The position numbers and the translations under genes were made by a program. DNA of 64,000 nt from Thermoanaerobaculia bacterium (GTDB taxonomy: Bacteria > Acidobacteriota > Thermoanaerobaculia > Multivoradales > J023): NCBI GenBank assembly GCA_036397835.1, contig DASWIG010000188.1, positions 18,964-82,963 of the forward strand, read 5' to 3'. This document shows positions 13,686 through 56,387 of this stretch, piece by piece (within the stretch, counting starts at the first letter, position 1; the number at the start of each line of letters is the position of its first letter). Under the pieces are notes generated by a model. The model ran no database searches, was not told where the DNA came from, and worked only from the letters and a program-made list of their open reading frames with translations.

Positions 13686-13689
13686 TATC

Positions 13690-18390: not shown

Positions 18391-21300
18391 CGAAGTCCGC
18401 CTCCGCGAATTCCTCGACCAGGCGTTCGAGCTCGTCGTGGCTCAGGTCGGCTTCCGAAAACTCCGCCGGGGCGTAGGCCGACCCCCCGGCCGCGCCTTCT
18501 TCGATCAGCTCGCCGAGCGCCGCGACGCCTTCCCGCGCCAGCGACTCGATCGTGCCGCGACGAAAGAGCAGGCCGTTGTAGGTCCAATCGACGCGCAGGC
18601 GTCCGGCGAGAACGCACCCGGTCACTTCCAAGGGACGGTTGTAGAGGCCGCGTGGGCCCAACACCTGCACGCCGTCGGCAACGGCGGCAAGCCACCCGGC
18701 CGAGTCCCCGCCCGGCACGTCGAGGTTGCCGAGAAAGCCGACGAGCACGTCGGCCGGCGGCTCGGCCCGCAGGCGCGTGGCGGTCTCGGTTTGCGGACGA
18801 AGGTACCGGAGCTGGCCGTAGAGAAGGCCGTCGCCTTCGAGCGACCTGAGTCGTTGCTTGACCCGCCTTAGCGCCTCGGTCGGCGACGTGTCCGCCCCCA
18901 GCTCCATGCGCAGTGGAAAGACGTTGCCGAAAGGCCCGATCGTCGCCGTGGTGTCAGGGAGGTCGAGGAATCTGCGGGATCGGCTGCCTTCGACGTCGAC
19001 ACGCAGGGCCGGAGTGGCCGACCGGCGTGCCAGCACGCGCAAGACCGCGGCGAGGAGCACTTCCTCGATCTCGGCCCGCAACGTCTCCGCGACCCGGCAG
19101 AGAAGCGTGGACGTGAGCTCCGTGCTCAGGTGAGTCGAAATCGTTCGGAGCGTGACGCCTCGCGTCCGGGAGCGCCGCTCCGGATGGTCGACCAGCAGAA
19201 ACGGCGTCGAGGCCTCTCGGTGCGCCGACTCGGGAAGCTCAGCCGACGGCGAATGACGGCTCACCTGTTCGGCCCAGCGCCGAAACGAGATCGGAGCCGC
19301 CCGTGGCGGGCTCGCTGGCGGAGTGTCCGGCGGACGGCAAACCCGATCGAGTTCCGCCAGCAGGACGGGCCACGAGGCGGCGTCGGCTGCCAGACGATGG
19401 ACGACGAGCAGTAACCGAGAGGGGCGATCGGCCGGCGATTTCACTCGGGCCACGCGCAGCAGAGGCCCCCTCGTCACGTCGAATCCGACCCTCGCTTGCG
19501 CCTCGATCGCCGCGAGAAGGCCGCTCCACCTCCCGTCCGGAACCGACGACACGTCGATCTCGGCAAACGGGCACCCGTTCCTCGAGGAGCTCGCGACTTG
19601 CCAGAAACCGGACACCAGCCTCTCGATGCGAAGCCTCAGAGCGTCATGACGGCGGGCAAGCTCCATCACCGCCCGCGAGATCGCCGCCGCTTCATGGGGG
19701 CGTCTCTCCTCGAGCCAAAGGGCGTGGGCGGCGCGCTCAGGCGCCGTCTGCTCCTCGAGCAGCGCCACTTGAGCGGGCGCCAGCGGCACTGGGCCGAGCG
19801 TGGTGCCTTGGTCGGCCTGGCCCTGCTCGCAGAGGCGAGCGGCGAGGGCGGCGATGGTCTGGTGCTCGAAGACGTGCCGGGTGCTGACCGTCAGGCCGGC
19901 CTCGGCGGCACGGGTGATGAAGAGGATACCCTTGATCGAGTCGCCGCCCATCTCGAAGAAGTTGTCGTGGACGCCGATCTCGTCGACGCCGAGGACCTCG
20001 GACCAGATGCGCGCCAGGGTTCGTTCCACCGCCGTCCGCGGCGCCACGGCGGTTTCCCGCCGGTCTTGGCCGAGCTGGTCGGGGGTCGGCAAGGCGCCGC
20101 GGTCCACTTTGCCGTTGGCCGATAGCGGCAGCTTCTCGAGCGGCACGAAGAGGGCGGGCACCATGTGCTCGGGCAGCTTGCGGCGCAGGAACTCCCGCAC
20201 GCCGCCGATCCACGCCGCGCGGTCGACGGAACCGGAGACGAGCGGAGCCTCCGCTTCCTCCGCAGTCTGGCCGGCCCCCGGCGCACGCACCACGAAGGTG
20301 GGCGACGGGTAGCGCACCCGCGGCGACTGCGCGGACGCAGCCACGCGGCCGCCCACGTGACTGTGGAGCAGGACGTGATCGTCGCCGAGGACCAATCGGC
20401 CGCGCAGGTCCTCGAACGCCAGGTCGCCGATCGGGCACAGACCCAGGCCTAGACCCGACGCCTCGCTCATCAGGAGCTGGCTCATGTAGCCCGCCTCCAG
20501 CAGGCAAAAGTCCCGGGCGCTTTCGCCGTAGAGCGGCCGAATGGCGCGAAGATCGCCGATCAGGAACAGCGCGAACGCCGCCTGGTCGAAGATCGGCTGA
20601 TTGTGGACGCCGTACAGGCTCCGGTCGACGCTCTCCCCCGCCTGCAGCAGGACAAGCTGATGGTCTCTGGCGTGGTGATAGTAGAGGCCGGCGGGGGCGT
20701 CTTCCACCGCGGCCGGCTTGACGTAGAGGTAGGTCTGGACCGGGTACAGATTGCCGGCGGAGGGATAGCGGTACTTCGGCAGCGGGAAATCGCCGAGCCT
20801 CACCTGGCCCAGCGCGCCCATCAGGCGGCTCAGAGCCGAGAAGGGGACGGTCTCGCCGAGGAACTCGCGATGGCTGCGGCGCGTGCCGAAACCTCGGGCC
20901 AGGGTCTCGTCGGCGTCGAGTTGGAGGAGCTGAAGGCCCTGGCGATCGTCGAGGTCCCGGCGCAAGCCCGGTTCGCTGAGCTTGAAGTCCAGGCTGCCGA
21001 GCGCGTCCAGGGGGCCCACCGGGCTGGCCGCAGGAGCCGCCGCGGACGATCCGGGCCCCGGCCCCCGCGGTCCCAGACGGGATGCGCAGGAGGCCGCGTC
21101 GGGGGCTGTGGCCGAATCCCGAGATTCGGCGAATTCGGGCACCAGGTAGGCAGCCAGTCGCTGCCGCGAACGCGTCCCGACCGCGGTCACTACGGCCGAT
21201 CGGACCAGCGGGTGAGCCTCGAGAGCCGCCTCGACCTCGCCCAGCTCGATCCGATGTCCCTGGATCTTGACCTGGAGATCCTCGCGGCCCAGGAACTCGA

Positions 21301-24300
21301 TCGTCCCGTCGGGGAGATAGCGGCCCAGGTCCCCGGTCCTGTAGAGGCGCTCGCCACTCCGCGGTTCGGCCACGAACCTGCTCGCCGTCGTCGGCGCGTC
21401 TCTCCAATACCCGAGCGCCAGACCGTCCCCGCCGATGTAGAGCTCCCCGGGGACCCAGACCGGACGCGTCCTGAGGTCTTGGTCGAGCACGTGGAAGCGC
21501 TGATTTCGCATCGGCCGTCCGTAGGGGATGCTCGTCCACGACGGCGGCACCTCTCGGACCGGGTAGAGGATCGACCAGATCGACGCTTCCGTCGCTCCTC
21601 CCAGGCTCACCACTTCGGCGTTCGGACAGAGCCTGCGAATCCGATCCGGCAGATCCACCGGTATCCAATCCCCTGAGAGGAGGACCCGCCGTAGGGAAGT
21701 CAGATCGGCCCCCGGAGACCGCGAAGCCCATTCGACCAGCATCTCCATCAACGCCGGCACCGTGTTCCACACCGTCACGCCGTGGGAGGCGATCAACTCG
21801 GCCCAGCGCTCGGGGTCCCGCGCCGCCGCCGGCTCCGGCAGCACCAGCGCGCCACCGGCGGCCAGGAGGCCGAAGACGTCGTAGACCGACAGGTCGAACG
21901 ACAGCGACGAGAGCCCCAGCACCCGGTCGGCGGGACCGATTCCGAAGCGCTCGTTGACGTCGTGCACGGTGTTGAGCGCGCCCCGGTGATCGATCATCAC
22001 GCCTTTCGGCTTGCCGGTCGAGCCCGAGGTGAAGATGACGTACGCCAGGTCGCGCGGCCCGCAGGCCGGCGGCGCGCCGCTTCCTTGGGCAGTCCCGGCC
22101 GCCGGATCGTCCGCGGTCACCGCGACGAGCTCGACACCCGGCGGCCATGCCAACTCTCGGGTCAGGCCGCCTTGCGTCACCGCCACCGAAATCCGGCCGT
22201 TCTCGAGCAGGAATTGGCGACGCTCGTCGGGCACCCGGGCGTCGATCGGCAGATAGGCCGCCCCGGCCTCGAGGATTCCCAGAACCGCCACCACCTGTTC
22301 CCATCCCTTCTCCATCACCACCGCCACCAAGCGGCTCGGCCCGACGCCCAGGCCCCGCAGGCGCTCCGCCAGGCAGCGCGCGCGCCGCGCCAGCTCGCCG
22401 TAGCTCAGGCGGACGCCGTCGGCCAGGACCGCGAGGTCTTCAGGCGACCGCGCCGCTCGGAGCATAAAGGGTGTCTGCAGGAGGTGCCGCGGAGCCGGCG
22501 CCGCGGTGGCGTTGGCCTGGTCCAGGACGGCCAGTTGCTCCTCGGGCACGCGGGCCGGCCTGCGCAGGCTCCACGTCGATTCCTGGTCCGCCAAGCGCAG
22601 CAGTAGGTCGTGGAAGGCGGCGAACATCGCGTCCAACAATCCGTCCGGGAAGAGGTCCTCGATCGCGTCCCAGTTGAAATGAAGTCCTTCGGGGCCTTCC
22701 GAGACCTGGTGATCGAGCCACACCTGGGGCGTTTGCGAGATGCCGTAGACCGAGCGGCCGTCCTGGCCCGCCGAGACCGTCTCCTCGGAAGCGCCGACCG
22801 CCGCCGGACCGCCGGTCTGCGACGGCTCCTCGCCGTGGAACAACGTGCTGGTGAAGACCACCGGCATGGTGGCGCTGGCGGTGCGGCCCCGGGCCCGTGC
22901 CCACTCCCGGAGGACGCTCACCCCGTTGAAGTAGCGGTGCTCAAGGTCGAGCCAGAGCTGCTCCTGAACCGTCCGGGCAAAGCGCTCGAACGTCTTGCCT
23001 CCTCGGGCGTCGACCTGGAGCAGGGTGAGAGAGGTGAAGTCTCCGACCACCTCGTTGACCTGGGGGTGGAGCGGCAGACGGTTGAAGGTCGTGACGTTGA
23101 TCGTCATCTCGGCCGACTTGCTCCACGTCGCCAGCCCGTCGGCGAACGCCGCCAGGAGAAGACCGGAGGGCGTCAGGCCGGCGTCCGCCGCCCGCTTCTT
23201 GAGGCGCGACCACCTACCGCGTTCGAGGACGGCGCGGCGGCGGCTGAAGCGGGGCCGGGTGAGCGTCCCGGGCCGGCGGGCGAGCGGCAGCTCCGGGGCC
23301 GGCGGCAGGCTCTCGAGGCGATCGAGCCAATATCGCCGCGAGCGCTCGTAGGGCGGCGAATCCCGAAACGCGGCCTCGGCGGCGACGTAGTCGCGAAACG
23401 TCACGTCGAGAGGCGGGAGCTCGGCGTCGGGGTCCTGGTAGAGCCGCATCAACTCGCGGTAGAGGATGAGCGAGCTCCAGGCGTCGATCAGCAAGATGTC
23501 GCTGCTCACGTGCAGCCGAACGCCTTCCTCGAGCCGGGTCGCCCTGAGCTCGAAGAGAGGCCAGCGATCGGCCGGCAGGACTTGGTGCGACATGCGCTCG
23601 CGGATCGCCTCGAGCTCGGAGGCCACGACGGCAGGCGGCTCGCCTCTCAGGTCGGCGACGGCGATCCGGTAGGGAGGGACGTCCCGCAACACCCGCTGGC
23701 GACCGTCCGCCAGGACCACCGCCCGCAGCATGTCGTGGCGCTCGATCAACCGCTGCCAAGCCCCTTCGAGACGTTGGAGGTCGAGGCTTGCCGACTGGAT
23801 CTCCATGTAACCGTGGGAGGCCACGTTGCCGAGCTCGAAAGCGTCGCCGCGGCCGATCCAATAGGCCTGTTGAACTTCGTTCAGACTGAAGGGCTCGAAG
23901 CGCCGCGCCCGATCCGGCTCGATCGTGGGGAGGGCGGCCGGAAGCGACGCGCTGCGTTCTTGCTCTGCGCGCATCTGATCGACGGCGGCGGCCAGGCCGG
24001 CGACCGTCGGAGCCTGGAAGAGCCGACGCAAGGGGACGTCGACTCCGAACGTCTCGGACACCCGGTTGACGAGCTGGATCGCCGCCAGGGAGTTGCCGCC
24101 CAGGTCGAAAAGGCTTTCGTGGGCTCCGACCCGCTCACGCCCCAGGATCTCCTGCCAGATCACGGTCAGCTCTCGCTCGACGGGAGTGGTCGGCCCGGCG
24201 TCGCGCCGGGTCTTCGGCGCGGCTTCCTCGGGCGCCGGCAATGCCCGCCGGTCGATCTTGCCGTTGGGGGTCAGCGGAAGCGTCGCGAGCGCGACGAACG

Positions 24301-27300
24301 TCGCCGGCACCATGTACTCGGGGAGGCGCCGCGCCAGGTAGCTCCGGAGGTCCGAATCCGCCGGCGCGGGCTCGTCACGCGGCACCAGGTAGGCCACCAG
24401 CCGCCGCCGGCTGCGCTCGGGGCCCATCGCGACGACGGCCGCCGAGCGCACGTCCGGGTGGCTCTCAAGAGCCGCTTCGACCTCGCCCAGCTCGATCCGA
24501 TGGCCCTGGATCTTGACCTGGTGGTCCTCGCGGCCAAGAAACTCGATGGTCCCGTCAGGAAGGAACCGGCCCAGATCGCCCGTCCGGTAGAGCCGTCGTC
24601 CGCTCGGCGAAGCCACGAAGCTTCGCGCCGTCTTGGCGGCATCGCGCCAGTAGCCCCGCGCCAGGCCCACCCCTCCGATGAAGAGCTCGCCGATCACCCA
24701 TACCGGGCGCGGAGCCAGGAAGGCGTCCAAGACGTGAAATTCCTGGTGGCGCATCGCTCGCCCATAGGGCACGCTGTTCCAGGACGCCTCCACCTTCCCA
24801 ATCGGGTACAGGATCGACCAGATCGAGGCCTCCGTGGCGCCGCCCAAGCTCACCACCTCGGCCCGCGGGCACACCGCCCGGATCCGATCCGGCAGATCCA
24901 CCGGAATCCAATCCCCCGAGAGCAACACCAATCGCAACGAGCTCAAGTCCACGTCGTGTCGGCCGTCCGCCCACTCGATCAGCATCTCCATCAGCGCCGG
25001 GACCGTGTTCCAGACCGTGACTCGCCGCGCCGCGATCAGCTCGGCCCAATGCCCGGGATCCCGCAGCGCCGCGCCCTCCGGCAAGACCACGGCTCCGCCT
25101 GCCGACAGCAAGCCGAAGACGTCGTAGACCGAGAGGTCGAACGACAGAGACGAGAGATCGAGCACCCGGTCGCCCGGACCGATGCGAAAGCGTTCATTGA
25201 CGTCGAGGACCGTGTTGAGGGCGGCACCGTGCTCGATCATCACGCCCTTCGGCCGGCCCGTCGAGCCGGAAGTGAAGATCACGTACGCCAGCTCGCCGGA
25301 ACCTCCCGGTTCGCGGCGGACAGGTTCCTGGAAGCTTGACGGATCCTGATCGCCCTCTTCCGTCACCACCAACGGCGACACGGCGGTCGGCCATTCCGGC
25401 GACTTGGCGAGCCACGGCTGCGTCACGGCGACGGACACCTCGGCGCTGGCCATCAGCTCGGCGCGGCGGCGTCGCGGCAAGGCCGGATCGATCGGCAGGT
25501 AGGGGGCGCCGGAATCCAGGATGGCCAGCACCGCCACGACCTGCTCCCAACCCTTGTCCATGACGACCGCGACCGGACGCTCGGCCGCCGCGCCCGCGCG
25601 GCGCAAGCGCGCGCTCAAGATTCGAGCGCGGCGCTCCAGCTCTCCGTAGCTCAGCTCCGTGAACGGCTCCATTCCGCCACGCAGTGGAGCGACCACCGCC
25701 GTCCGGTCCCGGTTCACCGCGGCCTGGGCCAGGACCGGCTCATGAAGCCTCCCGCTACCGGCGGCGTGCGGGATGGCCCCGCCATGGACACGCGCCCACG
25801 GCGCGTCGGCGGGCACCATCCGGCCGGCCAGATCCGGACGGCTGGCTCGCCACGCGAGGTCGTCCTCCGCCAGAGATTCGAGCAGGTCCCGGTAAGCGGT
25901 CAGCATGGCGTCGAGAAGGCCCGCTGGGAACAGCTCTTCGACCGCGTCCCAGTTGAACCGCAGCGCCCCCTCCTGCTCCCAGACCTGGTGATCCAGCCAC
26001 ACCTGGGGCGTCTGGGAGACGCTGTAGACCGACTCGCCGGAAGCTCCCCGCCGCTCGTCCCCGGGACGGTCAGGAGTCGCCACCGCGGGCATCGTCAAGG
26101 TGCTGGTGACCACCACGGGCATCAGAGCGCCCGGGGCGCGGCCCTCGAGCCGCGCCAGCTCGCGCAGCACCCGCACCCCGCTGAAGTATCGATGATCGAG
26201 ATCCTCCCAGAGCCGTGCCTGGATCGCCCGGGCCCGCTCCTCAAACCGCGCCCCCTGCCGGAGGTCCACCTCCAGCAGCGTCAGGGACGTGAAGTCCCCC
26301 ACGATCGAGTCGACCTCGGGGTGAATCGGAAGCCGGTTGAAGAGCGTCAGGTTGAGGGTGAAGCGAGGATTGCGCGACCAGGTTGCCAGGACCTCGGAGA
26401 AGGCGGCCAAGATCAGGGCCGAGGACGTCAGGCCGCAGGGCGCGGCCCGTTGCTTCAAGCGCTTCCATGCCGGAGCCGCGAGGCTCGCGGAACGGCGGAG
26501 GAACCGAGGGCGCTCCACGGACTCGGGGGCCCGGGCCAGCGGGAGCTCCGGCGCCGGGGGCAGTCCGGCGAGGCGAGCCATCCAGTAGTCGCGCGAGCGC
26601 CGGTAGAGCGCGGAGCCCTCGAGCTGACGCTCGGCGAGGACGTAATCTCTGAACGACAGATCGGGAGGCTGCAGCCGGAGGGTGGGGTCGGCCGCCAGCC
26701 GGGCGTAATCGCGGGCCAGGATGCGGAAGCTCCAGGCGTCCCAGATCAGCGCGTCGCAGCTCAGGTGGACCCGTGCGCGCCCTTGCGGCAGCAGGGAGGC
26801 CTTGACCTCGAAGAGCGGCCATCGGTCGGTGGCGAGCACTTGGTGCGACAGGGTGCTCCGCATCCGCGCGAGCTCACGCTCCCGCTCCTCGGTCCGCATC
26901 CGGCGGAGGTCGCGAACCTCGATCTCGTAGGCGGGCACGTGCTCGAGGATCCGCTGGGTGCCGTCGGCGAGGACGACCATCCGGAGCATTTCGTGGCCCG
27001 CGACCAGGCGGTTCAGAATGCTCTCCAGGCTCGCCATCTCGACTCCCTGGGCTTCGATCTCCAGGTAGCTGTGGGTCGCGACGTTGCCCAGCTCGAAAGC
27101 GGCCTGGCGGCCTATCCAGTAGGCCTGCTGGACATCGTTCAAGGGGAACGGCTCGAAGCGCCGCGCCGGATCGGGCTCGACCCGGGGCAGCGCCTCCGGC
27201 ACCACGGGCTCGATCTCCAGGGCCTTCTCGCGCAGGATCTCTTCGGCGAGCCCGGCGACCGTCGAGGCCTGGAAGAAGACCCTGAGTGGCAACCTCGCGT

Positions 27301-30300
27301 GGAAGCGCCGCTCAACCCGGTCGAGGAGCTGCGTCGCCAGGAGAGAGTGCCCCCCGAGCATGAAGAAATCGTCGTCGACTCCCAGCTCGTCGAGCTCCAA
27401 GACCTCTCTCCAAAGGGCGGCCATCGCCTCTTCCGTGGGGTTGCGGGGCGCCACGAGGCCGGCGGCGGTCCGCGGACGCCGCTCCTCGGCCAACGGCGTC
27501 GTTGCGATCGGACGGCGTTCGGCGATCATCGAAGCCACCGGCAGCGTGTAGCCCGAAAACCGCTCGACGATCAGGGCGTGACGCTGTGCTGGACTGAGCA
27601 GCGGGAGCTCCATGATCGGCCTGTCCGGCTCCGACAGCGCGGCGACCACCAGAGCCTCGAGGTGCCCCAGCATTCGCTTCGTGGTGGTGGCGGCGAAGAG
27701 GTCGATCCGGTAACCCAGCTCCAGGGCGACGCGACCTTTTCGTTCCGCCGCCGCCAGGGTGAGATCGAATTTCTCCGTCCTCGCGGCGACGTCGAGAGGC
27801 TCGATACGCAGCCCTGGCACCTGCGCCTCGGCCTCCCGCAGCGGGCTGCTGGCGAAGAGGAACATGACCTGGAAAAGAGGAGAGTGGCTGAGGCTTCGTC
27901 GCGGCGAGAGCTCCTCCACCAGCCGTTCGAAGGGCAGGCTCTGGTGCGCGAAACCGTTCAGGGCCTCGCGGCGCACGTGATCGACCAGGGCCTCGAACGA
28001 CGTGACTTCGGCGATGATGCTGCGCAATACCAGGGTGTTGACGAAGAAGCCGATGAGCCCCTCGAGCTCGATGCGGTCGCGGCCGCTGACCGGTGTACCG
28101 ACACAGATGTCCTGCTGGCCCGTGTAACGAAGGAGAAGCGCCTTGAAAGCGCTCATCAGGGTCATGAATAGGGTCGCTCCCCGTATCCGGCTGAACTCCC
28201 GCAGCCTGTCGGACAGCGCCGTGGAGAGCACTCGGGTCGAGCTGGCGCCGCGATACCGCTGCACGGCGCCGCGCGGGAAGTCGGCGGTCAGCTCGAGCGT
28301 CGCCGGCGCACCTTCCAAGCGCTTCTTCCAGTACTCGAGATCGGCCGCGATCCCTTGGCCTGCCAGCCAACGCCGTTGCCAGTGGCCGAAGTCGAGGTAC
28401 TGGATCGGCAGCTCCGGCAACGGAGAGGGACGGCCGGCCGACCGCGCCGCATAGAGGGTCATCGCCTCCCGCGTCAGAACCTCCATCGACCAGCCGTCGC
28501 TGACGATGTGGTGAAGGGTGAGGATCAGCGCGTGATCGTCGGGACTCAGCTCCAGCAGGAAGAGCCGCAGGAGAGGGCCTCGGGCTAGATCGAACGGCCT
28601 CAGCGACTGGATGGCCGCGATCCTCCTTGCTTCCGGCTCACGCGCCGCCGCGATCAGGCCGGACAGGTCCACGCGCGGCAGCGATACCCTGGCAACGGCG
28701 GAGATCTCCTGGATCGGGCGCCCCTCTCGCGAGGAGAAGACCGTGCGCAGAGTCTCGTGACGCCAAACGATCTCGGCCAGGCTGCCCGCGAGCGCCTCGA
28801 CGTCGAGACCGCCGCGCATCCGCAGCGCGACCGGGATGTTGTAGACCGCGTTGCCCGGCTCAAGCTGATCGAGGAACCACAGCCGCTGCTGTGCGAAGGA
28901 AAGAGGCTTTTCACCTTCCCGAGGGACGACCTCCATGGCCGGCAGGTCGGAGCGCCGGCCCGCCCGGTTCCCGCGATCGATCAGGCCCGCGAGCTGCGAG
29001 ACCGTCGGCGAGGTGAAGACCTCCTGGAGCGACACCTCGGCGCGAAAGGCCACGCGAATCCGCGACACCAGACGAGTCACCAACAGCGAGTGGCCTCCGA
29101 GATCGAAGAAGCTGTCGTGAATGCCGACTTTGTCGACTGCGAGCAGCTCGGCCCAGAGACCGGCCAGGATCCTCTCCGTTTCACTGGCCGGAGCCACGTG
29201 TCGGCGCCTCAGGAGCTTGCGCGCCTCCTCAAGGCTCGGCAACCGGCGGGTGTCGACCTTGCCGTTCAGAGTCAACGGCATCCGTCGCAGATGGACGAAG
29301 AGGTTGGGTATCGTGCCCTCGATCAGAAAACGCTTGAGGTGGCGGCGCAAATCCGCCTGGTCGAGCATCTGCCGGGACACGTAGTAACCGAGCATCACTT
29401 GGCGGCCCGCCCCTTCCTCGGTCACCACGACCGCGGCGTCGCGGATCTCCGGATGACGGATCAGGGCGAGACGGATCTCGTTGAGCTCCACCCGGAAGCC
29501 GTGGAACTTGACCTGGTTGTCCATCCTGCCGAGGAAATCCACGCCGCCTTCCGGAAGCAGCCGGGCGTAATCGCCGGTGCGGTACATCCGCATGCCGCCG
29601 CGCCGGTCGAACGGGTCGCAGACGAACTGCTGCGCCGTCGTCCCCGGACGCGACAGGTAACCCTGGGCCAACCCCGGCCCGGCGAGAAACAGCTCGCCGC
29701 TCATGTTCTCCGCCACCGGCTGCAGCGCGCCGTCCAGCAGGTAGATCCGGGCCCCGGCACCAGCCCGGCCGATCGGCACGAAGGCCCGGTCGTCCTCCTC
29801 GGGCTCGAAGCGGTGGATCATGCAGCCGACGGTCGCCTCCGTCGGACCGTATTCGTTGTAGATCTCGATCTGTCCGCCGAAGCCCTCGTGGACGGACCGG
29901 GCCAGGCGGCTCGTCAGAGCCTCGCCGCCCACCACTAGGCGCCGGATTCCACATGCCTCCCGGCGATGCTCCGTGAGCAGCGCCAGGTGGCTCGGCGTCA
30001 GCTTCAGCACGCTGGGGCGCCGCTCGGAGAGAATGCGCGGGAAGGGGGACTGGCCGTCAATCCAGGGATGAACGAGGATCGCTCGGCCGGCCGCGAGCGG
30101 CGTCAGGACGGAGGTCACGGTGAGGTCGAAGGCGAGCGAAGAATGGAGGACGAAGTCGAGGTTCTCGCCGCTCAGGTAGACCTCCATTGCCCATTCGACA
30201 TAGTTCGCCAGCGCGGCGTGCGAAACCGCCACTCCCTTGGGCTGACCGGTAGAGCCGGAGGTATGGATCACATAGGCGAGGTCGGCCCCGCCGAGCTCCG

Positions 30301-31489
30301 GCCATCCTCCGGTGGGCGAGGCGGCCAACTCCTGCTCCCAGCCGGCGTCCAGGCAGAGCGTCTCGACGCCGGCCAGGGTCTCGAATCCGTCGATCCCGGA
30401 CCGCGACACCACCAGGGCGATGCCGGCACCGCGGACGGCCGACGACCTCCTTTCCGGCGGGTGCTCCGGATCCAGAGGCACAAAGGCGGCTCCCGCCTTC
30501 AGGATGGCTAGAATCCCCGCGACGGCTTCGGGCGATGGCTCGAGGCAAAGCCCTACGCAGTCCCCTCTTCCTACGCCACGGTCCCTCAACACGCTCGCAA
30601 GTCCCGTCACGAGGCGACCCAGCTCCCCATAGGTCATCTGGCCATGCTCTGAAAGGACGGCCTTGGCCTCGGGATTGGCCGCGACCCGCTCCTCGAAGTG
30701 CTGGCCCGCGCCGCGCGTTGGGGACCGCGAACGACCCCGCGGACAGACGAGCCACTTCGACGGCCGGGTCCGGGAGAGAAGCCGAAGGGCCGAGATCTCG
30801 AGCTCGGGCGCGCCCGCCATTCGTCCAAGCACGTCCTCGAGCTGCGCCGCGAAGGTCGCCACCGTCGAGTGCTTGAACAGGTCCCGGCGGTACTCCACCT
30901 CGGCCCCGAGCCCGCCCCGGCCGGCCGAGAAGGCGACCACGACCTCGCTGTGCGCTTCACGGTAGTGCTCCTCGTCGTTGACGGCGTCCAGAAGGACGCC
31001 GACGCGCAGAAGGCTCCGGGGGTTCGCCCAACCCCGATCCAAGATCTCGGGAATCTTCGCGAGAGGATACTTCTGGTGGGTAAAGGCTTCGGACAGGCTG
31101 TTCTTGACGGCGTTCAGGACCTGACGGACGGTGTGGGTAGGTGCCACACGGTCACGAATCGCCAGAATCCGGTTGAAGGCGGCAGCCTCCTCGAATCGCC
31201 GGTGGACCGCCGTACCGACGACGACGTCCTCGAGGCCGGTGTACTTGGCGAGGACGACCTTGACCGCCGAGATCAGGAAGGCCAGGGTCATGGAGGCATT
31301 GTCCGAGCACACCCGGCGCACCGCGCTTACGGTCGCGGGAGCTAGGCCCAGATCCAGGCGGCCGAAGGGTCCGGCACGGCGGCCGGTGGCCAGGTAGTCG
31401 CAAGGCAATCCGGCGGCGGACCAGTCTCCGGCAAGCTTCTGCGCCCAGTACTTCCTCTCCGTCTCCAGCTCTTCGTCGAGAAGACTCAC
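18374..31489 (-). CDS. Giant NRPS (~4370 aa from the GTG at 31489; ORF remains open to 31834): truncated-C - A - PCP - C - PCP (A-less) - Cy - A - PCP - Cy - A(Ox-embedded) - PCP - E-like
   Basis: Motifs in order. C-terminal half of a C domain only (ERKYWAQKL...LPCDY...TLAFLISAVKVVLAKYTGLEDVVVGTAVHRR, no HHxxxDG). A core LAYVIHTSGSTGQPKGV (~30190-30285). PCP FFDLGGHSLLVTRL (~29100). C domain LSFAQQRLWFL...HHIVSDGWS (~28500). PCP DDDFFMLGGHSLLATQL (27335-27380), reached only ~390 aa after HHIVSD, so there is no A domain. Cy1 FPLNDVQQAYWIGR (27121-27180) and DALIWDAWS. A core LAYVIFTSGSTGRPKGV (~25280), PCP LFDLGGNSLAAIQL (~24100). Cy2 FSLNEVQQAYWIGR (~23900) and DILLIDAWS. A core LAYVIFTSGSTGKPKGV (~22030) with an inserted Ox domain (KYRYPSAGNLYPVQTYLYV, ~20770). 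PCP FFEMGGDSIKGILF (~19940). C-terminal E-type domain (LGPVPLAPAQ..., VVHRLAADAASW, EGSRSR...TIGPFGNVFPL) and acidic tail EEFAEADFDEEDE. The first ~115 codons of the track ORF (R/G/P-rich; contains the VATQPVATQPVAV tandem-repeat translation) are judged non-coding; GTG at 31489 is the most upstream plausible start, but the real start is uncertain. Confidence 0.85.
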   Translation of the reverse strand: MSLLDEELETERKYWAQKLAGDWSAAGLPCDYLATGRRAGPFGRLDLGLAPATVSAVRRVCSDNASMTLAFLISAVKVVLAKYTGLEDVVVGTAVHRRFEEAAAFNRILAIRDRVAPTHTVRQVLNAVKNSLSEAFTHQKYPLAKIPEILDRGWANPRSLLRVGVLLDAVNDEEHYREAHSEVVVAFSAGRGGLGAEVEYRRDLFKHSTVATFAAQLEDVLGRMAGAPELEISALRLLSRTRPSKWLVCPRGRSRSPTRGAGQHFEERVAANPEAKAVLSEHGQMTYGELGRLVTGLASVLRDRGVGRGDCVGLCLEPSPEAVAGILAILKAGAAFVPLDPEHPPERRSSAVRGAGIALVVSRSGIDGFETLAGVETLCLDAGWEQELAASPTGGWPELGGADLAYVIHTSGSTGQPKGVAVSHAALANYVEWAMEVYLSGENLDFVLHSSLAFDLTVTSVLTPLAAGRAILVHPWIDGQSPFPRILSERRPSVLKLTPSHLALLTEHRREACGIRRLVVGGEALTSRLARSVHEGFGGQIEIYNEYGPTEATVGCMIHRFEPEEDDRAFVPIGRAGAGARIYLLDGALQPVAENMSGELFLAGPGLAQGYLSRPGTTAQQFVCDPFDRRGGMRMYRTGDYARLLPEGGVDFLGRMDNQVKFHGFRVELNEIRLALIRHPEIRDAAVVVTEEGAGRQVMLGYYVSRQMLDQADLRRHLKRFLIEGTIPNLFVHLRRMPLTLNGKVDTRRLPSLEEARKLLRRRHVAPASETERILAGLWAELLAVDKVGIHDSFFDLGGHSLLVTRLVSRIRVAFRAEVSLQEVFTSPTVSQLAGLIDRGNRAGRRSDLPAMEVVPREGEKPLSFAQQRLWFLDQLEPGNAVYNIPVALRMRGGLDVEALAGSLAEIVWRHETLRTVFSSREGRPIQEISAVARVSLPRVDLSGLIAAAREPEARRIAAIQSLRPFDLARGPLLRLFLLELSPDDHALILTLHHIVSDGWSMEVLTREAMTLYAARSAGRPSPLPELPIQYLDFGHWQRRWLAGQGIAADLEYWKKRLEGAPATLELTADFPRGAVQRYRGASSTRVLSTALSDRLREFSRIRGATLFMTLMSAFKALLLRYTGQQDICVGTPVSGRDRIELEGLIGFFVNTLVLRSIIAEVTSFEALVDHVRREALNGFAHQSLPFERLVEELSPRRSLSHSPLFQVMFLFASSPLREAEAQVPGLRIEPLDVAARTEKFDLTLAAAERKGRVALELGYRIDLFAATTTKRMLGHLEALVVAALSEPDRPIMELPLLSPAQRHALIVERFSGYTLPVASMIAERRPIATTPLAEERRPRTAAGLVAPRNPTEEAMAALWREVLELDELGVDDDFFMLGGHSLLATQLLDRVERRFHARLPLRVFFQASTVAGLAEEILREKALEIEPVVPEALPRVEPDPARRFEPFPLNDVQQAYWIGRQAAFELGNVATHSYLEIEAQGVEMASLESILNRLVAGHEMLRMVVLADGTQRILEHVPAYEIEVRDLRRMRTEERERELARMRSTLSHQVLATDRWPLFEVKASLLPQGRARVHLSCDALIWDAWSFRILARDYARLAADPTLRLQPPDLSFRDYVLAERQLEGSALYRRSRDYWMARLAGLPPAPELPLARAPESVERPRFLRRSASLAAPAWKRLKQRAAPCGLTSSALILAAFSEVLATWSRNPRFTLNLTLFNRLPIHPEVDSIVGDFTSLTLLEVDLRQGARFEERARAIQARLWEDLDHRYFSGVRVLRELARLEGRAPGALMPVVVTSTLTMPAVATPDRPGDERRGASGESVYSVSQTPQVWLDHQVWEQEGALRFNWDAVEELFPAGLLDAMLTAYRDLLESLAEDDLAWRASRPDLAGRMVPADAPWARVHGGAIPHAAGSGRLHEPVLAQAAVNRDRTAVVAPLRGGMEPFTELSYGELERRARILSARLRRAGAAAERPVAVVMDKGWEQVVAVLAILDSGAPYLPIDPALPRRRRAELMASAEVSVAVTQPWLAKSPEWPTAVSPLVVTEEGDQDPSSFQEPVRREPGGSGELAYVIFTSGSTGRPKGVMIEHGAALNTVLDVNERFRIGPGDRVLDLSSLSFDLSVYDVFGLLSAGGAVVLPEGAALRDPGHWAELIAARRVTVWNTVPALMEMLIEWADGRHDVDLSSLRLVLLSGDWIPVDLPDRIRAVCPRAEVVSLGGATEASIWSILYPIGKVEASWNSVPYGRAMRHQEFHVLDAFLAPRPVWVIGELFIGGVGLARGYWRDAAKTARSFVASPSGRRLYRTGDLGRFLPDGTIEFLGREDHQVKIQGHRIELGEVEAALESHPDVRSAAVVAMGPERSRRRLVAYLVPRDEPAPADSDLRSYLARRLPEYMVPATFVALATLPLTPNGKIDRRALPAPEEAAPKTRRDAGPTTPVERELTVIWQEILGRERVGAHESLFDLGGNSLAAIQLVNRVSETFGVDVPLRRLFQAPTVAGLAAAVDQMRAEQERSASLPAALPTIEPDRARRFEPFSLNEVQQAYWIGRGDAFELGNVASHGYMEIQSASLDLQRLEGAWQRLIERHDMLRAVVLADGRQRVLRDVPPYRIAVADLRGEPPAVVASELEAIRERMSHQVLPADRWPLFELRATRLEEGVRLHVSSDILLIDAWSSLILYRELMRLYQDPDAELPPLDVTFRDYVAAEAAFRDSPPYERSRRYWLDRLESLPPAPELPLARRPGTLTRPRFSRRRAVLERGRWSRLKKRAADAGLTPSGLLLAAFADGLATWSKSAEMTINVTTFNRLPLHPQVNEVVGDFTSLTLLQVDARGGKTFERFARTVQEQLWLDLEHRYFNGVSVLREWARARGRTASATMPVVFTSTLFHGEEPSQTGGPAAVGASEETVSAGQDGRSVYGISQTPQVWLDHQVSEGPEGLHFNWDAIEDLFPDGLLDAMFAAFHDLLLRLADQESTWSLRRPARVPEEQLAVLDQANATAAPAPRHLLQTPFMLRAARSPEDLAVLADGVRLSYGELARRARCLAERLRGLGVGPSRLVAVVMEKGWEQVVAVLGILEAGAAYLPIDARVPDERRQFLLENGRISVAVTQGGLTRELAWPPGVELVAVTADDPAAGTAQGSGAPPACGPRDLAYVIFTSGSTGKPKGVMIDHRGALNTVHDVNERFGIGPADRVLGLSSLSFDLSVYDVFGLLAAGGALVLPEPAAARDPERWAELIASHGVTVWNTVPALMEMLVEWASRSPGADLTSLRRVLLSGDWIPVDLPDRIRRLCPNAEVVSLGGATEASIWSILYPVREVPPSWTSIPYGRPMRNQRFHVLDQDLRTRPVWVPGELYIGGDGLALGYWRDAPTTASRFVAEPRSGERLYRTGDLGRYLPDGTIEFLGREDLQVKIQGHRIELGEVEAALEAHPLVRSAVVTAVGTRSRQRLAAYLVPEFAESRDSATAPDAASCASRLGPRGPGPGSSAAAPAASPVGPLDALGSLDFKLSEPGLRRDLDDRQGLQLLQLDADETLARGFGTRRSHREFLGETVPFSALSRLMGALGQVRLGDFPLPKYRYPSAGNLYPVQTYLYVKPAAVEDAPAGLYYHHARDHQLVLLQAGESVDRSLYGVHNQPIFDQAAFALFLIGDLRAIRPLYGESARDFCLLEAGYMSQLLMSEASGLGLGLCPIGDLAFEDLRGRLVLGDDHVLLHSHVGGRVAASAQSPRVRYPSPTFVVRAPGAGQTAEEAEAPLVSGSVDRAAWIGGVREFLRRKLPEHMVPALFVPLEKLPLSANGKVDRGALPTPDQLGQDRRETAVAPRTAVERTLARIWSEVLGVDEIGVHDNFFEMGGDSIKGILFITRAAEAGLTVSTRHVFEHQTIAALAARLCEQGQADQGTTLGPVPLAPAQVALLEEQTAPERAAHALWLEERRPHEAAAISRAVMELARRHDALRLRIERLVSGFWQVASSSRNGCPFAEIDVSSVPDGRWSGLLAAIEAQARVGFDVTRGPLLRVARVKSPADRPSRLLLVVHRLAADAASWPVLLAELDRVCRPPDTPPASPPRAAPISFRRWAEQVSRHSPSAELPESAHREASTPFLLVDHPERRSRTRGVTLRTISTHLSTELTSTLLCRVAETLRAEIEEVLLAAVLRVLARRSATPALRVDVEGSRSRRFLDLPDTTATIGPFGNVFPLRMELGADTSPTEALRRVKQRLRSLEGDGLLYGQLRYLRPQTETATRLRAEPPADVLVGFLGNLDVPGGDSAGWLAAVADGVQVLGPRGLYNRPLEVTGCVLAGRLRVDWTYNGLLFRRGTIESLAREGVAALGELIEEGAAGGSAYAPAEFSEADLSHDELERLVEEFAEADFDEEDE
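18420..19800 (-). other. E-like (epimerisation-fold) C-terminal domain with a degenerate active site
   Basis: Preceded by an E-type PCP (GGDSIKGI). Has the E-type N-terminus GPVPLAPAQ, the S-W order in HRLAADAASW (E domains: HHxxxDGxSW; C domains: HHxxxDGWS) with the second His replaced by Arg, and EGSRSR in place of EGHGRE. Confidence 0.55.
20340..20950 (-). other. FMN-dependent oxidase (Ox) domain embedded between A-domain cores A8 and A9
   Basis: Insertion in the third Cys-type A domain: ...LGDFPLPKYRYPSAGNLYPVQTYLYVKP...GLYYHHARDHQLVLL...LEAGYMSQLLMSEASGLGLGLCPIG...RLVLGDDHVLLHSHVGG (20340-20400). This matches the EpoB/BlmIII/MtaD-type Ox domains that aromatise thiazoline to thiazole. 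Confidence 0.75.
22700..23930 (-). other. Cy domain 2 of the giant NRPS
   Basis: FSLNEVQQAYWIGRGDAFELGN and VSSDILLIDAWS. Confidence 0.8.
25900..27180 (-). other. Cy domain 1 of the giant NRPS
   Basis: FPLNDVQQAYWIGRQAAFELGN and LSCDALIWDAWS (DxxxxDxxS). Confidence 0.8.
27300..29000 (-). other. A-less module: C domain (~27650-29000) followed directly by a PCP (~27300-27480)
   Basis: HHIVSDGWS at ~28500 and the PCP Ser motif at 27335-27380, separated by only ~390 aa; there is no AMP-binding core between them. Confidence 0.75.
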
Positions 31490-31824
31490 GGCGACAGGCT
31501 GTGTAGCGACAGGCTGTGTAGCGACAGACCGTGTATCGACCCCCAAGTCGTCTCCTTCATGCCTGGGCCTCCGGATACACCGACAACGTCGCCGGCCGTC
31601 CTCGTGGCCGCCGACGGACCCACGCTGACCATCAGTGGCCCCTATCCTACCCGGCCGTCTTTCCGGGCGCAAGAGCGCCCCCGGCCTCCGCGCTGAATCG
31701 GCGCCGTCGGGCGGACTCGCGCTTCGCCTTCGACGCGATCCCTGGTAGCCTTGGGCCTCCGAAGCGCTCGGCGGGCTGGGGACCCGCAGCCGGCCCTCGG
31801 GGCGCTCTGGGTTGGTAGCGCCGG
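31490..31824. promoter_or_regulatory. Divergent intergenic/promoter region between the giant NRPS operon (-) and the glycosyltransferase-like gene (+)
   Basis: ~335 nt with no credible coding frame (both overlapping track ORFs are R/P/G-rich). Contains the tandem 15-mers and a second direct repeat, TGGGCCTCCG, at 31564-31573 and 31752-31761. No -35/-10 consensus assigned. Confidence 0.5.
31492..31536. repeat. Three tandem 15-bp direct repeats: CGACAGGCTGTGTAG (31492-31506), CGACAGGCTGTGTAG (31507-31521), CGACAGACCGTGTAT (31522-31536), plus a partial fourth copy CGACCCCC
   Basis: Read directly from the sequence. Lies immediately upstream of the putative GTG start of the giant NRPS, inside the divergent intergenic region. 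Confidence 0.9.
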
Positions 31825-32895
31825 ATGCCGCCAACCGGTCCTTCGCAGGTCATGACTCTGGCGATCGTCTCCACCGTCCGCGATGCCGGCAAGGTGCTCG
31901 ATTCCTTCATTCGGTACCATGTTGCCATAGGCTTCGATCGCCTGTTCATCATCTTCGACGACCCGTGCGACCCCATGGCCGAGAGTGCCCGGAGATACCC
32001 GCAGGTCACGGCTCTCACCAACGACGACGGTCTGCGGCGGCGTTGGAAGACCCGGAGGTCCTACGCGAGGGTAGGCCCCTTCATCGACGACCACGTGATG
32101 TCCAGGCAGATCTTGAACGCCGAGGTCGCCATCGAGATGGCGCTCGAGATGGGCCTGGAGTGGATTCTCCATATCGACGTGGACGAGCTCTTCCACTCCC
32201 AAGAAGCCCCCAAGAAGCATTTCGAATCGCTGGCGGAGCGTGGCATCGACTTCGTGACTTATCCCAACCACGAAGCCGTTCCGGAAGCGTTCAAAATCGA
32301 CGATTACTTCAAGACGGTCACGCTCTTCAATAAGAACGCTTACACGCTTGAAGCCGGGCAAGCTCGCGGTCGGCGCCGCTTCCTCTACTACGGCAACGGC
32401 AAATCCGCGGCGCGCCTTTGCCGGAACCTGATGGCAAAGAGCGTTCACGAGTTCATGCTGTCTCGAGAGCGGAGCTGGGCCTACCGGAACTTCCTTCACC
32501 TCTTCTTGCCCTATCGGAAGATTCCGCTGGTCAAACCGCGGGTGTCGTTCGGCGGATCGTGGCGCAAGAGGGGGAGCGGGGGAAGCAGGGCTGCGTCGCA
32601 AGATGTCCACAAGCTGCCGGTGATCCTCCATTACGCCTGTTGCGGATTCCAGCACTTCTGGCAAAAATACAAGACCCTGGGATCGTTTCCCGACCGTTGG
32701 TTCGGCCGCGTCGAGCTTTCGCGACAGGTGCCCTTTCACGTGCAAGCGCGAAACGTCGTGATGACGCAAGGGCGGGAGGCCGCCAGAAAGCTGTACCAGG
32801 AAGTAGTCATGGCTGGCGGCGAGCAGGAAACGCGTGACCGCCTCGAGGCCGGCACCTTCTGCCGCATTGTCGAGCCCTCTCGCCTCTTGGCCTGA
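31825..32895 (+). CDS. GT-A fold glycosyltransferase-like protein (GT2/GT92-DUF23-like; DxD-type motif); low-GC gene
   Basis: 356-aa ORF with ordinary (non-low-complexity) composition; ATG at 31825 (alternative ATG at 31852 giving MTLAIVSTVRD). N-terminal LAIVSTVRDAGKVLDSFIRYHVAIGFDRLFIIFDDPCDP resembles the nucleotide-sugar-binding start of GT-A enzymes, and LEWILHIDVDELFH is a DxD-type motif. GC ~55-58% versus ~72% in the flanking megasynthases, with different codon usage (AAA, AAT, TTT, TTC and AAG codons). Confidence 0.55.
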   Translation: MPPTGPSQVMTLAIVSTVRDAGKVLDSFIRYHVAIGFDRLFIIFDDPCDPMAESARRYPQVTALTNDDGLRRRWKTRRSYARVGPFIDDHVMSRQILNAEVAIEMALEMGLEWILHIDVDELFHSQEAPKKHFESLAERGIDFVTYPNHEAVPEAFKIDDYFKTVTLFNKNAYTLEAGQARGRRRFLYYGNGKSAARLCRNLMAKSVHEFMLSRERSWAYRNFLHLFLPYRKIPLVKPRVSFGGSWRKRGSGGSRAASQDVHKLPVILHYACCGFQHFWQKYKTLGSFPDRWFGRVELSRQVPFHVQARNVVMTQGREAARKLYQEVVMAGGEQETRDRLEAGTFCRIVEPSRLLA

Positions 32896-32968: not shown

Positions 32969-35900
32969 CTAGAAGGCGAAATCGTCGTCGAGCTCCTCCA
33001 CGTGGATCGGCGTCGCGAGGGCGGCCGTCTCCCGCCGCGAAAGCACGTCGAGCTTGCTCAGCCGCGCCTCGGGGGTCGCGACGATGCTCTCCAGCAGGCG
33101 CCCGAACCGGTCGAGAAGATTGCGAATCGTCATCGGGCTGAAGAGGTCCCGGCTGTACTCGAGCTCGCCACGAAGGCCGTCCGGGCTCGGCCACACGTTC
33201 ATGAGCAGGTCGAATTTGGCGCTCCGTCTCTTGATCCTGAATCCGCTGAGCTGCAGGCCTGGAAGCTGCAAGGGCACGGAAGGCGCGTTGAGCAGTGAGA
33301 ACACCACCTGGAACAGCGGGTTGTAGCTCGGATCGCGCTCTGGTTGGAGCTCTTCCACGAGCTTCTCGAAAGGCGTGTCCTGATGGCCATAGGCATCGAG
33401 CGTCGACTCGCGTATCCGCGCGAGGAACTCAGTGAAAGGCGGATCGTCGATCAGCTCCACCGGCAACAGGAGCATATTGACGAAAAAGCCGACCAGGGGC
33501 TCGACTTCGGTCCGCGTCCGGTGCGCCACGTTGGTCGCCACGACGAATCTCCGCTGTCCCGAGTGCCGCCAGAGCAGCAGGTCGAACGCCGCCAGGAGCG
33601 TCATGAAAAGCGTCGCTTGGTTCTCGCGGCTCAGGCTCTCGAGCCGCAGGGTGAGGTCTCGTGAGAGCTGAACGTTCTCGGCCGCGCCGCGAAACGACGG
33701 CACCGGCGGCCGTGGGTAGTCGGCGAGCCCGGCGAAGAGGCGCGGGATCCCCTCGAGGCGTTCACGCCAGTACTTCAGCTCACGCTCCAACACTTCTCCG
33801 CGCAGCCAGTTCCGCTGCCAGCGGGCGTAGTCGCGGTACTGGAGCGGCAGGTCAGGGAGCAGCCGAGCCGCTTCGGCGAGGCCGGCTCCTCCCTTGAAGG
33901 CAGCGTAGAGCGTCTTCAGCTCTCCCGCGATGATCGCCTGAGACCAGGCGTCCGAGACGATGTGGTGCTGAGTCAGGAGGACGACGTGAAGTCTCGCGGC
34001 GAGGCGCACCAGGGTGATGCGAACCATCGCGCCGCGGGCCAGGTCGAACGGCCTGGCGGCCTCCGACTCCGCCAGGCGGACAAGCTCGGCGTCGCGGTCC
34101 GGCTCACGGAGCGAGCTCAGGTCGGCGACGGGGAGGTAGGAAGGCCTGATGGGACCGACGACCTGCACCGGCTCGCGGCCGTCGGAGGCCTCGATGGTCG
34201 ACCGGAGCACCTCGTGGCGCCGAAGGATCTCTCTCAGGCTCGCCGCGAGAGCCGTGACGTCGAGGTGCCCCTCGAGCCGCAGCGCTCCGTTCACGTTGTA
34301 GGCCGAGCTGGCGCCCCGCAACTGGCTCAGCCACCACAACCGCTGCTGGGCGAAGGAAAGCTCTGCCGAACGGGCTGTGGGATCGGCAAGGATGGCGGGC
34401 GGCGCCGGCGCGTCGCCACGCCTCATTCGGGCGATCTCGGCGCTGAGCTCCTCCACCGTCGGGTGCTCGAAGAGCTGGCGCAAGCCCACCTCCACCCCGA
34501 GGCTCCGACGAAGCCGGGAAACCACCTGCGTGGCGAGCAGGGAATGGCCGCCAAGGTCGAAGAAGTTGTCGTGGGGGCCGAAAGGCTCGATGCCGAGCAC
34601 GTCAGCCCAGATTCCCGTCACCAGCTCCACGATGGGAGTCCGCGGAGTCGCCGGCGACACGGTCTGCGGCGTGACCTCCGGAGGCGGCAACGCCCCCCGG
34701 TCCACTTTGCCGTTGCGATTCAGGGGCATCCTTTCCAGGAAGACCAGCGCCGACGGGACCATCGGATCGGGGAGGCGCTCGCGCAGGAACCGGTTCAGCT
34801 CCTCTCGGCTCGGCGCCGCGGCGGGAGCCACCACGTAACCCGCCAGCCTCGGATTCCCGGCGCCGTCGCGGGTCAGCACGGCCAACGCTTCACGCACCGC
34901 TGGATAGGCGGCAAGAGCCGCTTCCACCTCGCCGAGCTCGACGCGGAATCCGCGGATCTTGACCTGCTGATCGGCTCGGCCCAGATACTCCAATCCGCCG
35001 TCGGCGAGACGACGGGCAAGGTCGCCGGAGCGGTACAGGCGAGCGCCGGCCCGCTTGCTCCAGGGATGGGGAACGAAGCGCGAAGCGGTCAAGCCCGGGC
35101 GGTTCAGATACCCCCGGCTCAAGCCTTCGCCGGCTACGACGATCTCCCCCGTGACCCCAAGGGGAAGCACGGCCAGCGCCGCGGAGACGAGATGGACCTC
35201 GAGGTCCGGAAGCGGCCCGCCGATAAGACTTCCGCCGACTCTCCTGGCGGTGTGAGCCCGCCTGATCGGCAGCACCGTGACGTGCACGGTCGTCTCGGTG
35301 ATGCCGTACATGTTCACCAGCACGGGGCTCGACTCCCCGTGCCGATCGAGCCACGGGCGAAGTGAGCCAAGATCCAGGGCCTCGCCTCCGAAGATCACCC
35401 GCCGCAGAGCCAGCGCTCCGGGCTCGGCGACGTCGCGAAGGCTGCGAAAGGCCGAAGGAGTCTGATTGAGCACGCACACGCGTTCTCGCACCACGAGAGA
35501 ACAAAGCTCCTCGTGGGAGCGACTCGTCCAATACGGCACCACCACCAGGCGGCCGCCGTGAAGGAGAGCCCCCCACAGCTCCCAGACCGAGAAGTCGAAA
35601 GCGTAAGAGTGAAAAAGGGTCCAAGTGTCGCCGGAATGGAAGCCGAACCAGGGCCGCGTGGTCTCGAAGAGCCGCACGACGTTGTGGTGGGTCACCACCA
35701 CGCCCTTCGGTTCACCCGTGGAGCCCGAGGTGTAGATCACGTAGGCGGCCCGATGCGACTTGGGCGAGGTGTCCGGCCGGCACCTGTCAGGCTCTGCCGC
35801 GGGCCATCGGTGATCGAGATGGATCCTGCGCACACCGCTTTCCGACAGCTTCGGCGCGAGGGCGTCGGTCGTCAGCAACGCGGCGATGCCGGAGTCCTCG

Positions 35901-55467: not shown

Positions 55468-56387
55468 CTCGCGATCCCCCGGCGCTGGGATCTCGCCGCG
55501 GCGAACAGCCGGCCGGCGCGGACACGGGTCCTGGACAAGGCCGGGCGGCCCACCGTTTCCGCCGGCCTGGACCGCGCGGCGTAGAGGTTCCAGATCGGCG
55601 AGCTCTCGTAGTGGACGTCCTGATCGGCGACGACCGTGAACCCACGCTCTTCGAGGACCTCGCGCAGACGCTCCACGCGCCCCGCGACGTCGTGGACCTC
55701 GACGACCACCTGGCGGATCTTGGGCCAGTCGGCCGGCTCGATGCCGGCCAGCACGTCCTCCTCGCTCTTTTGCACGTCGATCTTGAGCAGGTCGATCCGC
55801 TCCACTCCCTCGTCGCGAATGACCTGGGAGAGCGGCAGCAGCTCGACGTCGAAAGTCTTGTTGCGCAACCGCTCGGCGAGCAGGTCGTCGGCATGCTCGA
55901 GGACCTCCTCGACGCCCTCGACGCCTTGACGCCGCTGATTCTCGAAGATCGATCGCAGGGCCTCGCGCTCCTCGTCTGGATCGCCGTAGAACGACGACAT
56001 GCCGGAGCTCGAGAGGTAGAAGGTGAGCGTGCCCCGGCCGCTGCGGCGCGAGACGCCGCAGTGGAACAGCCGCACGGCTTCGCCATGGCCGGCGGTGTTG
56101 TGGCGCAGGATCTCGAACAGTGCCGGCGCCGGCTCGAACGCGTAGACCCGGGCACGCGGGCTGAACCGGAGGGCGAAGAGCGTGAAGAGCCCGATGTTGG
56201 CCCCCACGTCGAAGACGCACTCCGCGTCCGAGAGATCGATACCGTGGCGCACGTAGATCCTCTTGACGAAGATGTCCTCGTAGAAGTACCTCGCCTCGCT
56301 GGTGGTCTGACAGGCGATCTCCAGACCGTTGGGCAGGCTGAGCCGACGCGGGACCGAAGCGCTGATCGGGGGTAGGGGTTCCGGCAC
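55464..56387 (-). CDS. FkbM-family SAM-dependent methyltransferase, 307 aa
   Basis: GTG start at 56387 (12 nt after the upstream NRPS TAG at 56402-56400). ECVFDVGANIGLFTLFALRFSP is the FkbM-family SAM-binding signature; the TGA stop overlaps the PKS ATG. Confidence 0.75.
   Translation of the reverse strand: MPEPLPPISASVPRRLSLPNGLEIACQTTSEARYFYEDIFVKRIYVRHGIDLSDAECVFDVGANIGLFTLFALRFSPRARVYAFEPAPALFEILRHNTAGHGEAVRLFHCGVSRRSGRGTLTFYLSSSGMSSFYGDPDEEREALRSIFENQRRQGVEGVEEVLEHADDLLAERLRNKTFDVELLPLSQVIRDEGVERIDLLKIDVQKSEEDVLAGIEPADWPKIRQVVVEVHDVAGRVERLREVLEERGFTVVADQDVHYESSPIWNLYAARSRPAETVGRPALSRTRVRAGRLFAAARSQRRGIAR

Follow-up and report, generated by a model that had tools for sequence, protein, structure and literature searches.

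The 64-kb stretch of DNA analysed here (64,000 nt of contig DASWIG010000188.1, hereafter "the window") comes from the metagenome-assembled genome (MAG) of an uncultured soil bacterium of the Thermoanaerobaculia (Acidobacteriota). It encodes a giant nonribosomal peptide synthetase (NRPS), O6, which contains a complete elongation module consisting of a condensation (C) domain and a carrier (T2), without an adenylation (A) domain of its own. The module is genuine. We are confident that it is a real A-less module that depends on an external A domain for its loading, and we tentatively favour the Asn-type A domain directly upstream as the donor.

A C-T module without an A domain

O6 was mapped with Pfam, applied to eight pieces of the protein, and with an in-house domain map (Table 1). 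Residue numbers refer to the long open reading frame (ORF) from 31834; subtraction of 96 gives the numbering of the called gene. The order of domains is half-C, Asn-type A (A1), T1, C, T2, heterocyclisation domain (Cy), Cys A (A2), T3, Cy, Cys A with a nitroreductase-type oxidase (Ox), T4, and an epimerisation-like (E-like) domain. Specificity codes were extracted by alignment to GrsA-PheA, which was checked at the ten code positions; residue 331 of A1 was corrected by hand. In view of the published Stachelhaus codes, we take DLTKVGEVGK to be an Asn-type code. DLYNLSLIWK, the code of the A domains of both Cy modules, presumably specifies Cys, and the other substrate calls given below are assumptions of the same kind.

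The C domain of the A-less module has all seven core motifs (C1-C7) intact, and its HHIVSDG sequence (residues 1108-1114, window positions 28493-28513) aligned with the active C domains of the cluster. T2 follows after a spacing of about 45-49 residues. Its phosphopantetheine attachment site, Ser1497 (codon 27344-27346), lies within the motif FFMLGGHSLL; alignment with the 13 other carriers confirmed that the serine is present and that GGHS is intact.

An A core between the C domain and T2 was searched for with six-frame tblastn, using an A-domain query. This search retrieved 14 A domains in the window, none of them in any frame between 25658 and 29194, and the ORFs that overlap the module in another frame or on the opposite strand had no Pfam matches. 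The place of the A domain is taken by a linker whose start (LLSPAQRHALIVE) resembles a C-A linker and whose end (VAPRNPTEE) resembles an A-T linker, with both flanks in frame. A search of this linker for a remnant of the motifs A9/A10 gave a profile score of 1.7 bits, which is not significant, as 139 of 2,000 shuffled sequences scored as high. An earlier note on this DNA had described a complete C domain followed by a carrier and then by a Cy domain, with no A core in between, and its description and coordinates were right according to Pfam, the domain map and tblastn.

To act, a C domain needs an aminoacyl thioester on its acceptor carrier. Because the C domain and the carrier of the module are intact and its own A domain is missing, an external A domain would have to load T2. 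The earlier note had likewise concluded that the carrier needs aminoacylation from outside the module, and this agrees with the logic of NRPSs and with precedents (yersiniabactin, capreomycin, WS9326A and enduracidin).

NRPS genes are repetitive and the sequence stems from a metagenome assembly, and thus an A domain could have been lost through repeat collapse or hidden by a frameshift. We considered ten independent ENA/JGI assemblies that contain the GT2-like gene next to O6. Over 12-21 kb, they match the window without gaps at 99.93-99.99% identity, and their precomputed Pfam annotation of O6 lists the domains in the order C, A, PP, C, PP, C, A, PP. Within the module there is one single-nucleotide polymorphism (SNP; V>I) across the assemblies, and there are no stop codons or indels. 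A self-BLASTN comparison detected no repeat of more than 69% identity over long stretches touching the module region. Since ten independent assemblies agree without indels, and no A-like sequence is present in any frame, the A-less architecture is almost certainly not an assembly or sequencing artefact.

The ten locus-bearing contigs represent one population (identity of at least 99.9%). To obtain a base rate, we inspected 80 unrelated NRPS loci, in which one of about 251 C-type domains was directly followed by a carrier. The A-less C-T arrangement is rare but recurrent.

Possible donors of the residue on T2

The upstream Asn-type A domain may load both T1 and T2; by analogy with known systems, this is the reading that we prefer, tentatively. 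Ser1497 of T2 would receive phosphopantetheine, and an A domain outside the module, most likely the adjacent upstream one in the same polypeptide, would aminoacylate it. The LCL-type C domain would then condense the peptidyl chain on T1 (...Thr-Asn according to the A-domain codes) with the aminoacyl group held by T2, and the first Cy domain would use peptidyl-S-T2 as donor to Cys-S-T3. In the first thiazoline of a thiazoline/thiazole pair, C2 and the 2-substituent would thereby derive from the residue on T2. With the upstream A domain as donor, the module would add a second Asn-like residue. The architecture, the intact catalytic motifs and their recurrence across assemblies are observed, as is the fact that the window holds no other candidate loader; the loading of T2 and the identity of its donor are inferred.

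The upstream A domain is favoured because the A-T1-C-T2 topology of O6 equals that of A-PCP1-Cy2-PCP2 in HMWP2 of yersiniabactin biosynthesis (PCP, peptidyl carrier protein). The logic would also be that of capreomycin biosynthesis, where CmnA-A1 loads CmnI. All 14 A domains of the window lie in otherwise complete modules. Because each of the two Cy modules of O6 has its own Cys A domain, these A domains have no evident need to load several carriers. In addition, megasynthase and tailoring genes tile the window completely; stand-alone A or A-T proteins, an MbtH motif and shuttles of the thioesterase or SyrC-like kind are all absent from it.

Several points weigh against the upstream A domain as the donor. 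No sequence feature ties T2 to it, and T2 is only 42% identical to T1, its best match being the carrier of O7 (50%). Among the C domains, that of the Thr module comes closest to the one of the A-less module (49%), ahead of the C domain serving Asn (41%), which gives no indication that the Asn module was recently duplicated. The search for a loader covered 64 kb of the ~100-kb contig, with ~36 kb and the remaining genome lying outside. Finally, the A-less modules of WS9326A and enduracidin use stand-alone A or A-T proteins (PMC7539972; PMC13320435).

The main rival, somewhat unlikely but nevertheless serious, is a separate A or A-T protein that is dedicated to T2 and encoded elsewhere than in the window, maybe together with an MbtH partner or with a shuttle of the thioesterase-like or SyrC-like kind. 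The similarities of T2 and of its C domain are uninformative and tie neither of them to a neighbouring module, and beyond the window the contig has another ~19 kb on the left and ~17 kb on the right. Ramoplanin, kutzneride and syringomycin reportedly provide precedents for stand-alone A domains, shuttles or MbtH partners. For C-PCP modules, the stand-alone route is well documented (PMC7539972; PMC13320435). However, none of the genes that tile the window encodes such a protein, and genes that run off the window take up ~3.3 kb on its right side as well as part of the left flank. We regard it as improbable that the downstream Cys-type A domain loads T2 in addition to its own T3, which would place an uncyclised Cys before the thiazoline-thiazole. 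Along the polypeptide, T2 is equally close to this domain and to the upstream A domain, and the Cys A domain of bleomycin biosynthesis reportedly serves extra carriers. A Cys A domain also serves extra carriers in the Cy-containing yersiniabactin system (PMC7539972). However, the A-less module carries an ordinary LCL C domain (HHxxxDG) instead of a Cy domain, and both Cy modules already hold their own A domains. To our knowledge, the shared A domain in such precedents lies upstream of the orphan carrier in assembly order, which also counts against the Cys A domain. A little less probable still is a recent relic: having lost its A domain, the module would be skipped, or T2 would stay unloaded, and the chain would pass from T1 to Cy. 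Module skipping is reportedly known in NRPSs, e.g. in myxochromide S, and the module offers only one SNP, and no diverged orthologue among the relatives, for a test of purifying selection. The intact core motifs of the C domain and of the carrier, the in-frame C-A-like and A-T-like flanks and the lack of stops and indels in ten assemblies all argue against a relic.

The earlier note had named the upstream A domain of O6, acting twice, as one candidate loader, which is plausible and is the option favoured above. It had also named O4 as a candidate for loading T2 in trans and had suggested that the TauD-family dioxygenase could act on the residue carried by T2. O4 is the sole single-module protein of the window and adjoins the TauD gene, and its C-like domain (C*) is catalytically dead, with TALQAD replacing HHxxxD, so that the catalytic His is absent. 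Loading by O4, either alone or, similar to SyrB1, after modification by TauD, nevertheless appears very unlikely. The A-T part of O4 is required in-line, because O2 ends with a C domain (HHxxxD intact) and O5 begins with one; the same split-module pattern is found at O5|O6 and O7|O8. The sequence (P/S/T)ALxAD at the site of TALQAD is a family trait of homologous proteins (P0132, P0164, P0173, P0181 and P0205). In an unrelated locus on another acidobacterial contig (L101, 6175-12127), a stand-alone C domain and TauD are followed by the O4 homologue P0132 (41% identity), and no A-less module is present in the region seen there; in P0164 and P0205, a TauD domain is fused to the C-terminus. Because the cassette order recurs in L101 and fused homologues exist, TauD most likely acts on the residue of O4's own carrier, and not on the A-less carrier ~18 kb away. 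The proposals on O4 and on TauD are therefore disfavoured. The lack of a shuttle enzyme in the window and the A domain of O4 itself also speak against O4 as the loader. This domain scores above the NCBIfam adenylation-domain cut-off and has the code SSRTLTMMVK, with Arg at 239. Its usual Asp235 is replaced by Ser (FSSSVR, a motif conserved in P0132), which disfavours an ordinary alpha-amino acid, and its substrate may thus be of another kind. The combination of C* and TauD resembles the published arrangement of an "interface domain" with a beta-hydroxylase (mentioned for antiSMASH 8).

The cluster around O6

The contig has a length of ~100.9 kb, and the GC content of the window is ~70%. One hybrid cluster of NRPS and polyketide synthase (PKS) genes, transcribed from the minus strand, fills the entire window and extends past both of its ends. 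It is made up of megasynthase genes and three tailoring genes, i.e. those for TauD, an FkbM methyltransferase and the GT2-like protein (Table 1).

Table 1. Positions of the genes in the window and of selected domains of O6 (aa, residues in the numbering of the long ORF; substrate labels are presumed from the specificity codes)
Feature	Position	Strand	Remarks
O1	56400 to beyond 64000	minus	3,617 aa as called; C-A-T, C-A(Asp-type)-T, C-A(Gly-type, luciferase-like monooxygenase insert)-T
FkbM methyltransferase	55464-56387	minus	
O2 (PKS)	48424-55467	minus	KS-AT-KR-DH-ACP-C
TauD-family dioxygenase	47378-48337	minus	319 aa as called; Pfam TauD 4.1e-43; exact-sequence match HEX9732036.1
O4	44156-47362	minus	C*-A-T (C*-A-PCP)
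O5	32969-44137	minus	C-A-T, E/C-like-A-T, C-A(Thr-type)-T, C
GT2-like gene	31825-32895	plus	Pfam Glyco_tranf_2_4 2.8e-13; exact-sequence match HEX9732032.1
O6 (giant NRPS)	18374-31546	minus	4,390 aa as called; start 31546 from the gene call in ENA assemblies
O6, upstream Asn-type A (A1)	29195-30697	minus	aa 380-880; Pfam AMP-binding 1.1e-71; code DLTKVGEVGK
O6, carrier T1	28985-29179	minus	aa 886-950, Ser916; PP-binding 5.2e-14; GGHS motif
O6, LCL-type C of the A-less module	27572-28918	minus	aa 973-1421; Condensation 8.3e-103, profile positions 2-455 of 456
O6, C-to-T linker in place of an A domain	27440-27571	minus	aa 1422-1465
O6, carrier T2	27230-27439	minus	aa 1466-1535; PP-binding 1.6e-16 (match aa 1471-1532)
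O6, stretch between T2 and the downstream Cys-type A	25835-27154	minus	Pfam and domain map
O6, downstream Cys-type A (A2)	24203-25672	minus	code DLYNLSLIWK; alternative donor for T2
O7	13690-18390	minus	C-A-T-C
O8	8562-13715	minus	A-T-C-A(Ser-type)-T
O9	start 8565, runs off left end	minus	KS-AT-...-ACP-Cy-A(Cys)-T-C-A...

O6 begins with a truncated C domain of the ordinary LCL type (30430-31546), of which only the C-terminal lobe is present, without an HHxxxD region; the preceding protein ends with a complete C domain. Membership of this half-C domain in the dead C* family of O4 was considered and rejected, as it is closer to the C-terminal lobes of ordinary LCL C domains. At the C-terminus (18374-19837), the E-like domain has HRLAAD in place of HHxxxD and follows a GGDSI-type carrier that is expected to hold an achiral thiazole. 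It is probably an inactive E domain retained for docking, and O7, the next protein in line, opens with a divergent C domain.

The GT2-like gene is the sole plus-strand gene of the cluster. Flanked by two megasynthase genes and located directly upstream of the Asn-type module, it falls within a region whose GC content is lower, and it had no match in PDB or NCBIfam. O9 starts at the ATG at 8565, which overlaps the preceding stop codon, and was not in the program-made list of ORFs because it runs off the left end; it is a hybrid PKS-NRPS and contributes the third heterocyclisation module of the cluster. The PKS module of O2 has its dehydratase after the ketoreductase (KS-AT-KR-DH-ACP-C), compared with the usual order KS-AT-DH-KR-ACP. 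In O1, the Gly-type A domain of an internal module (code DILQLGVIWK; window 56400-59411) is interrupted by a luciferase-like monooxygenase, which we take to be similar to the terminal-amide-forming MtaG/MelG; the FkbM gene and the PKS come next. The monooxygenase together with FkbM might yield an alpha-hydroxy- or methoxy-glycine unit. The A domain at 37913-39448 of O5 has the code DVWEITADDK, which presumably resembles that for 2,4-diaminobutyrate; before it comes a divergent condensation domain of the E/C-like type, which follows a GGDSV-type carrier. The Thr...Cys-Cys order, the PKS, the GT2-like gene and the hydroxylase raised the idea of a bleomycin-like cluster, which was rejected, because the order and number of modules seem unlike those of the blm cluster.

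A-less modules in Acidobacteriota and in known systems

Clusters that have retained an A domain at the position of the A-less module were looked for among the relatives. The scan of contigs retrieved only generic C domains of ~50% identity, and the protein search none above 56%. The protein search did retrieve A-less C-PCP-C(-PCP) proteins from several acidobacterial MAGs (P0004, P0005, P0020, P0031, P0034 and P0038), and A-less C-PCP units were noted at loci L086, L087 and L044, the one at L086 being a stand-alone protein after a large PKS. As in O6, the C domain of the tandem C-PCP(-C-PCP) proteins is followed by a short linker and then the carrier, and P0034 has the order (A)-PCP-C-PCP-C that is also found in O6. 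A stub of the C-terminus of an A domain is kept in P0011 and P0005, indicating that such modules arise via internal deletion. The tandem proteins are uncharacterised. Their C domains are 39-48% identical to that of the A-less module, i.e. no closer than those of ordinary C-A-PCP modules (46-56%), and they are therefore not orthologues of the module in O6.

These proteins raise the idea that the A-less unit is one case of a wider habit of Thermoanaerobaculia and other Acidobacteriota, which would comprise either routine loading of several carriers in cis or dedicated A domains acting in trans, with Asn-Asn before the thiazoline-thiazole in the present case. We consider this idea unlikely. If true, the former would correspond to the multi-loading in cis reported for fungal siderophore synthetases, and the latter would be loosely analogous to trans-AT PKSs. 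An iteratively loaded Asn-Asn directly before a thiazoline-thiazole would then be part of the hybrid NRPS-PKS product of a cluster of at least 100 kb without a known relative.

When the product is predicted from A-domain codes, the A-less module alone leaves a position blank. The residue on T2 would be the 2-substituent of the first thiazoline, and its identity thus bears on the predicted pharmacophore.

Experimental proof of the loaders of A-less modules is still limited (PMC12400406), but several systems can be compared with O6. HMWP2 of yersiniabactin biosynthesis has the organization ArCP-Cy1-A-PCP1-Cy2-PCP2, and its one A domain serves several carriers (PMC7539972). HMWP2 and O6 share the order of an A domain, its own carrier, a condensation-type domain and a second carrier without an A domain, and both form thiazolines. 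The orphan module of HMWP2 is a Cy-PCP unit that uses the shared Cys, whereas that of O6 is an LCL C-PCP unit next to an Asn-type A domain, its Cy modules keep their A domains, and sharing is putative. For capreomycin and viomycin, it was experimentally shown that CmnA-A1/VioA loads the A-less CmnI/VioI, and in the fungal SidC/SidD an in-line A domain serves A-less modules (PMC12400406). CmnI resembles the module of O6 in being an A-less C-T unit, and its loading relies on an A domain that belongs to a different in-line module; however, CmnI is a separate protein and its residue is L-Dap, whereas the module of O6 is embedded in a protein of 4,390 aa.

C-PCP didomains inside multimodular NRPSs, like that of O6, are also present in Cal19 of WS9326A biosynthesis, where the module is served by a stand-alone A-T protein (PMC7539972), and in module 8 of EndB of enduracidin biosynthesis, which is served by the stand-alone A-T protein EndD (PMC13320435). 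Both of these clusters encode free A-T proteins and thioesterase-like shuttles, neither of which is present in the window around O6. The megasynthase is novel, but its A-less module is of a known kind and does not challenge the current understanding of NRPSs. O6 would add an embedded bacterial example to the short list of A-less modules.

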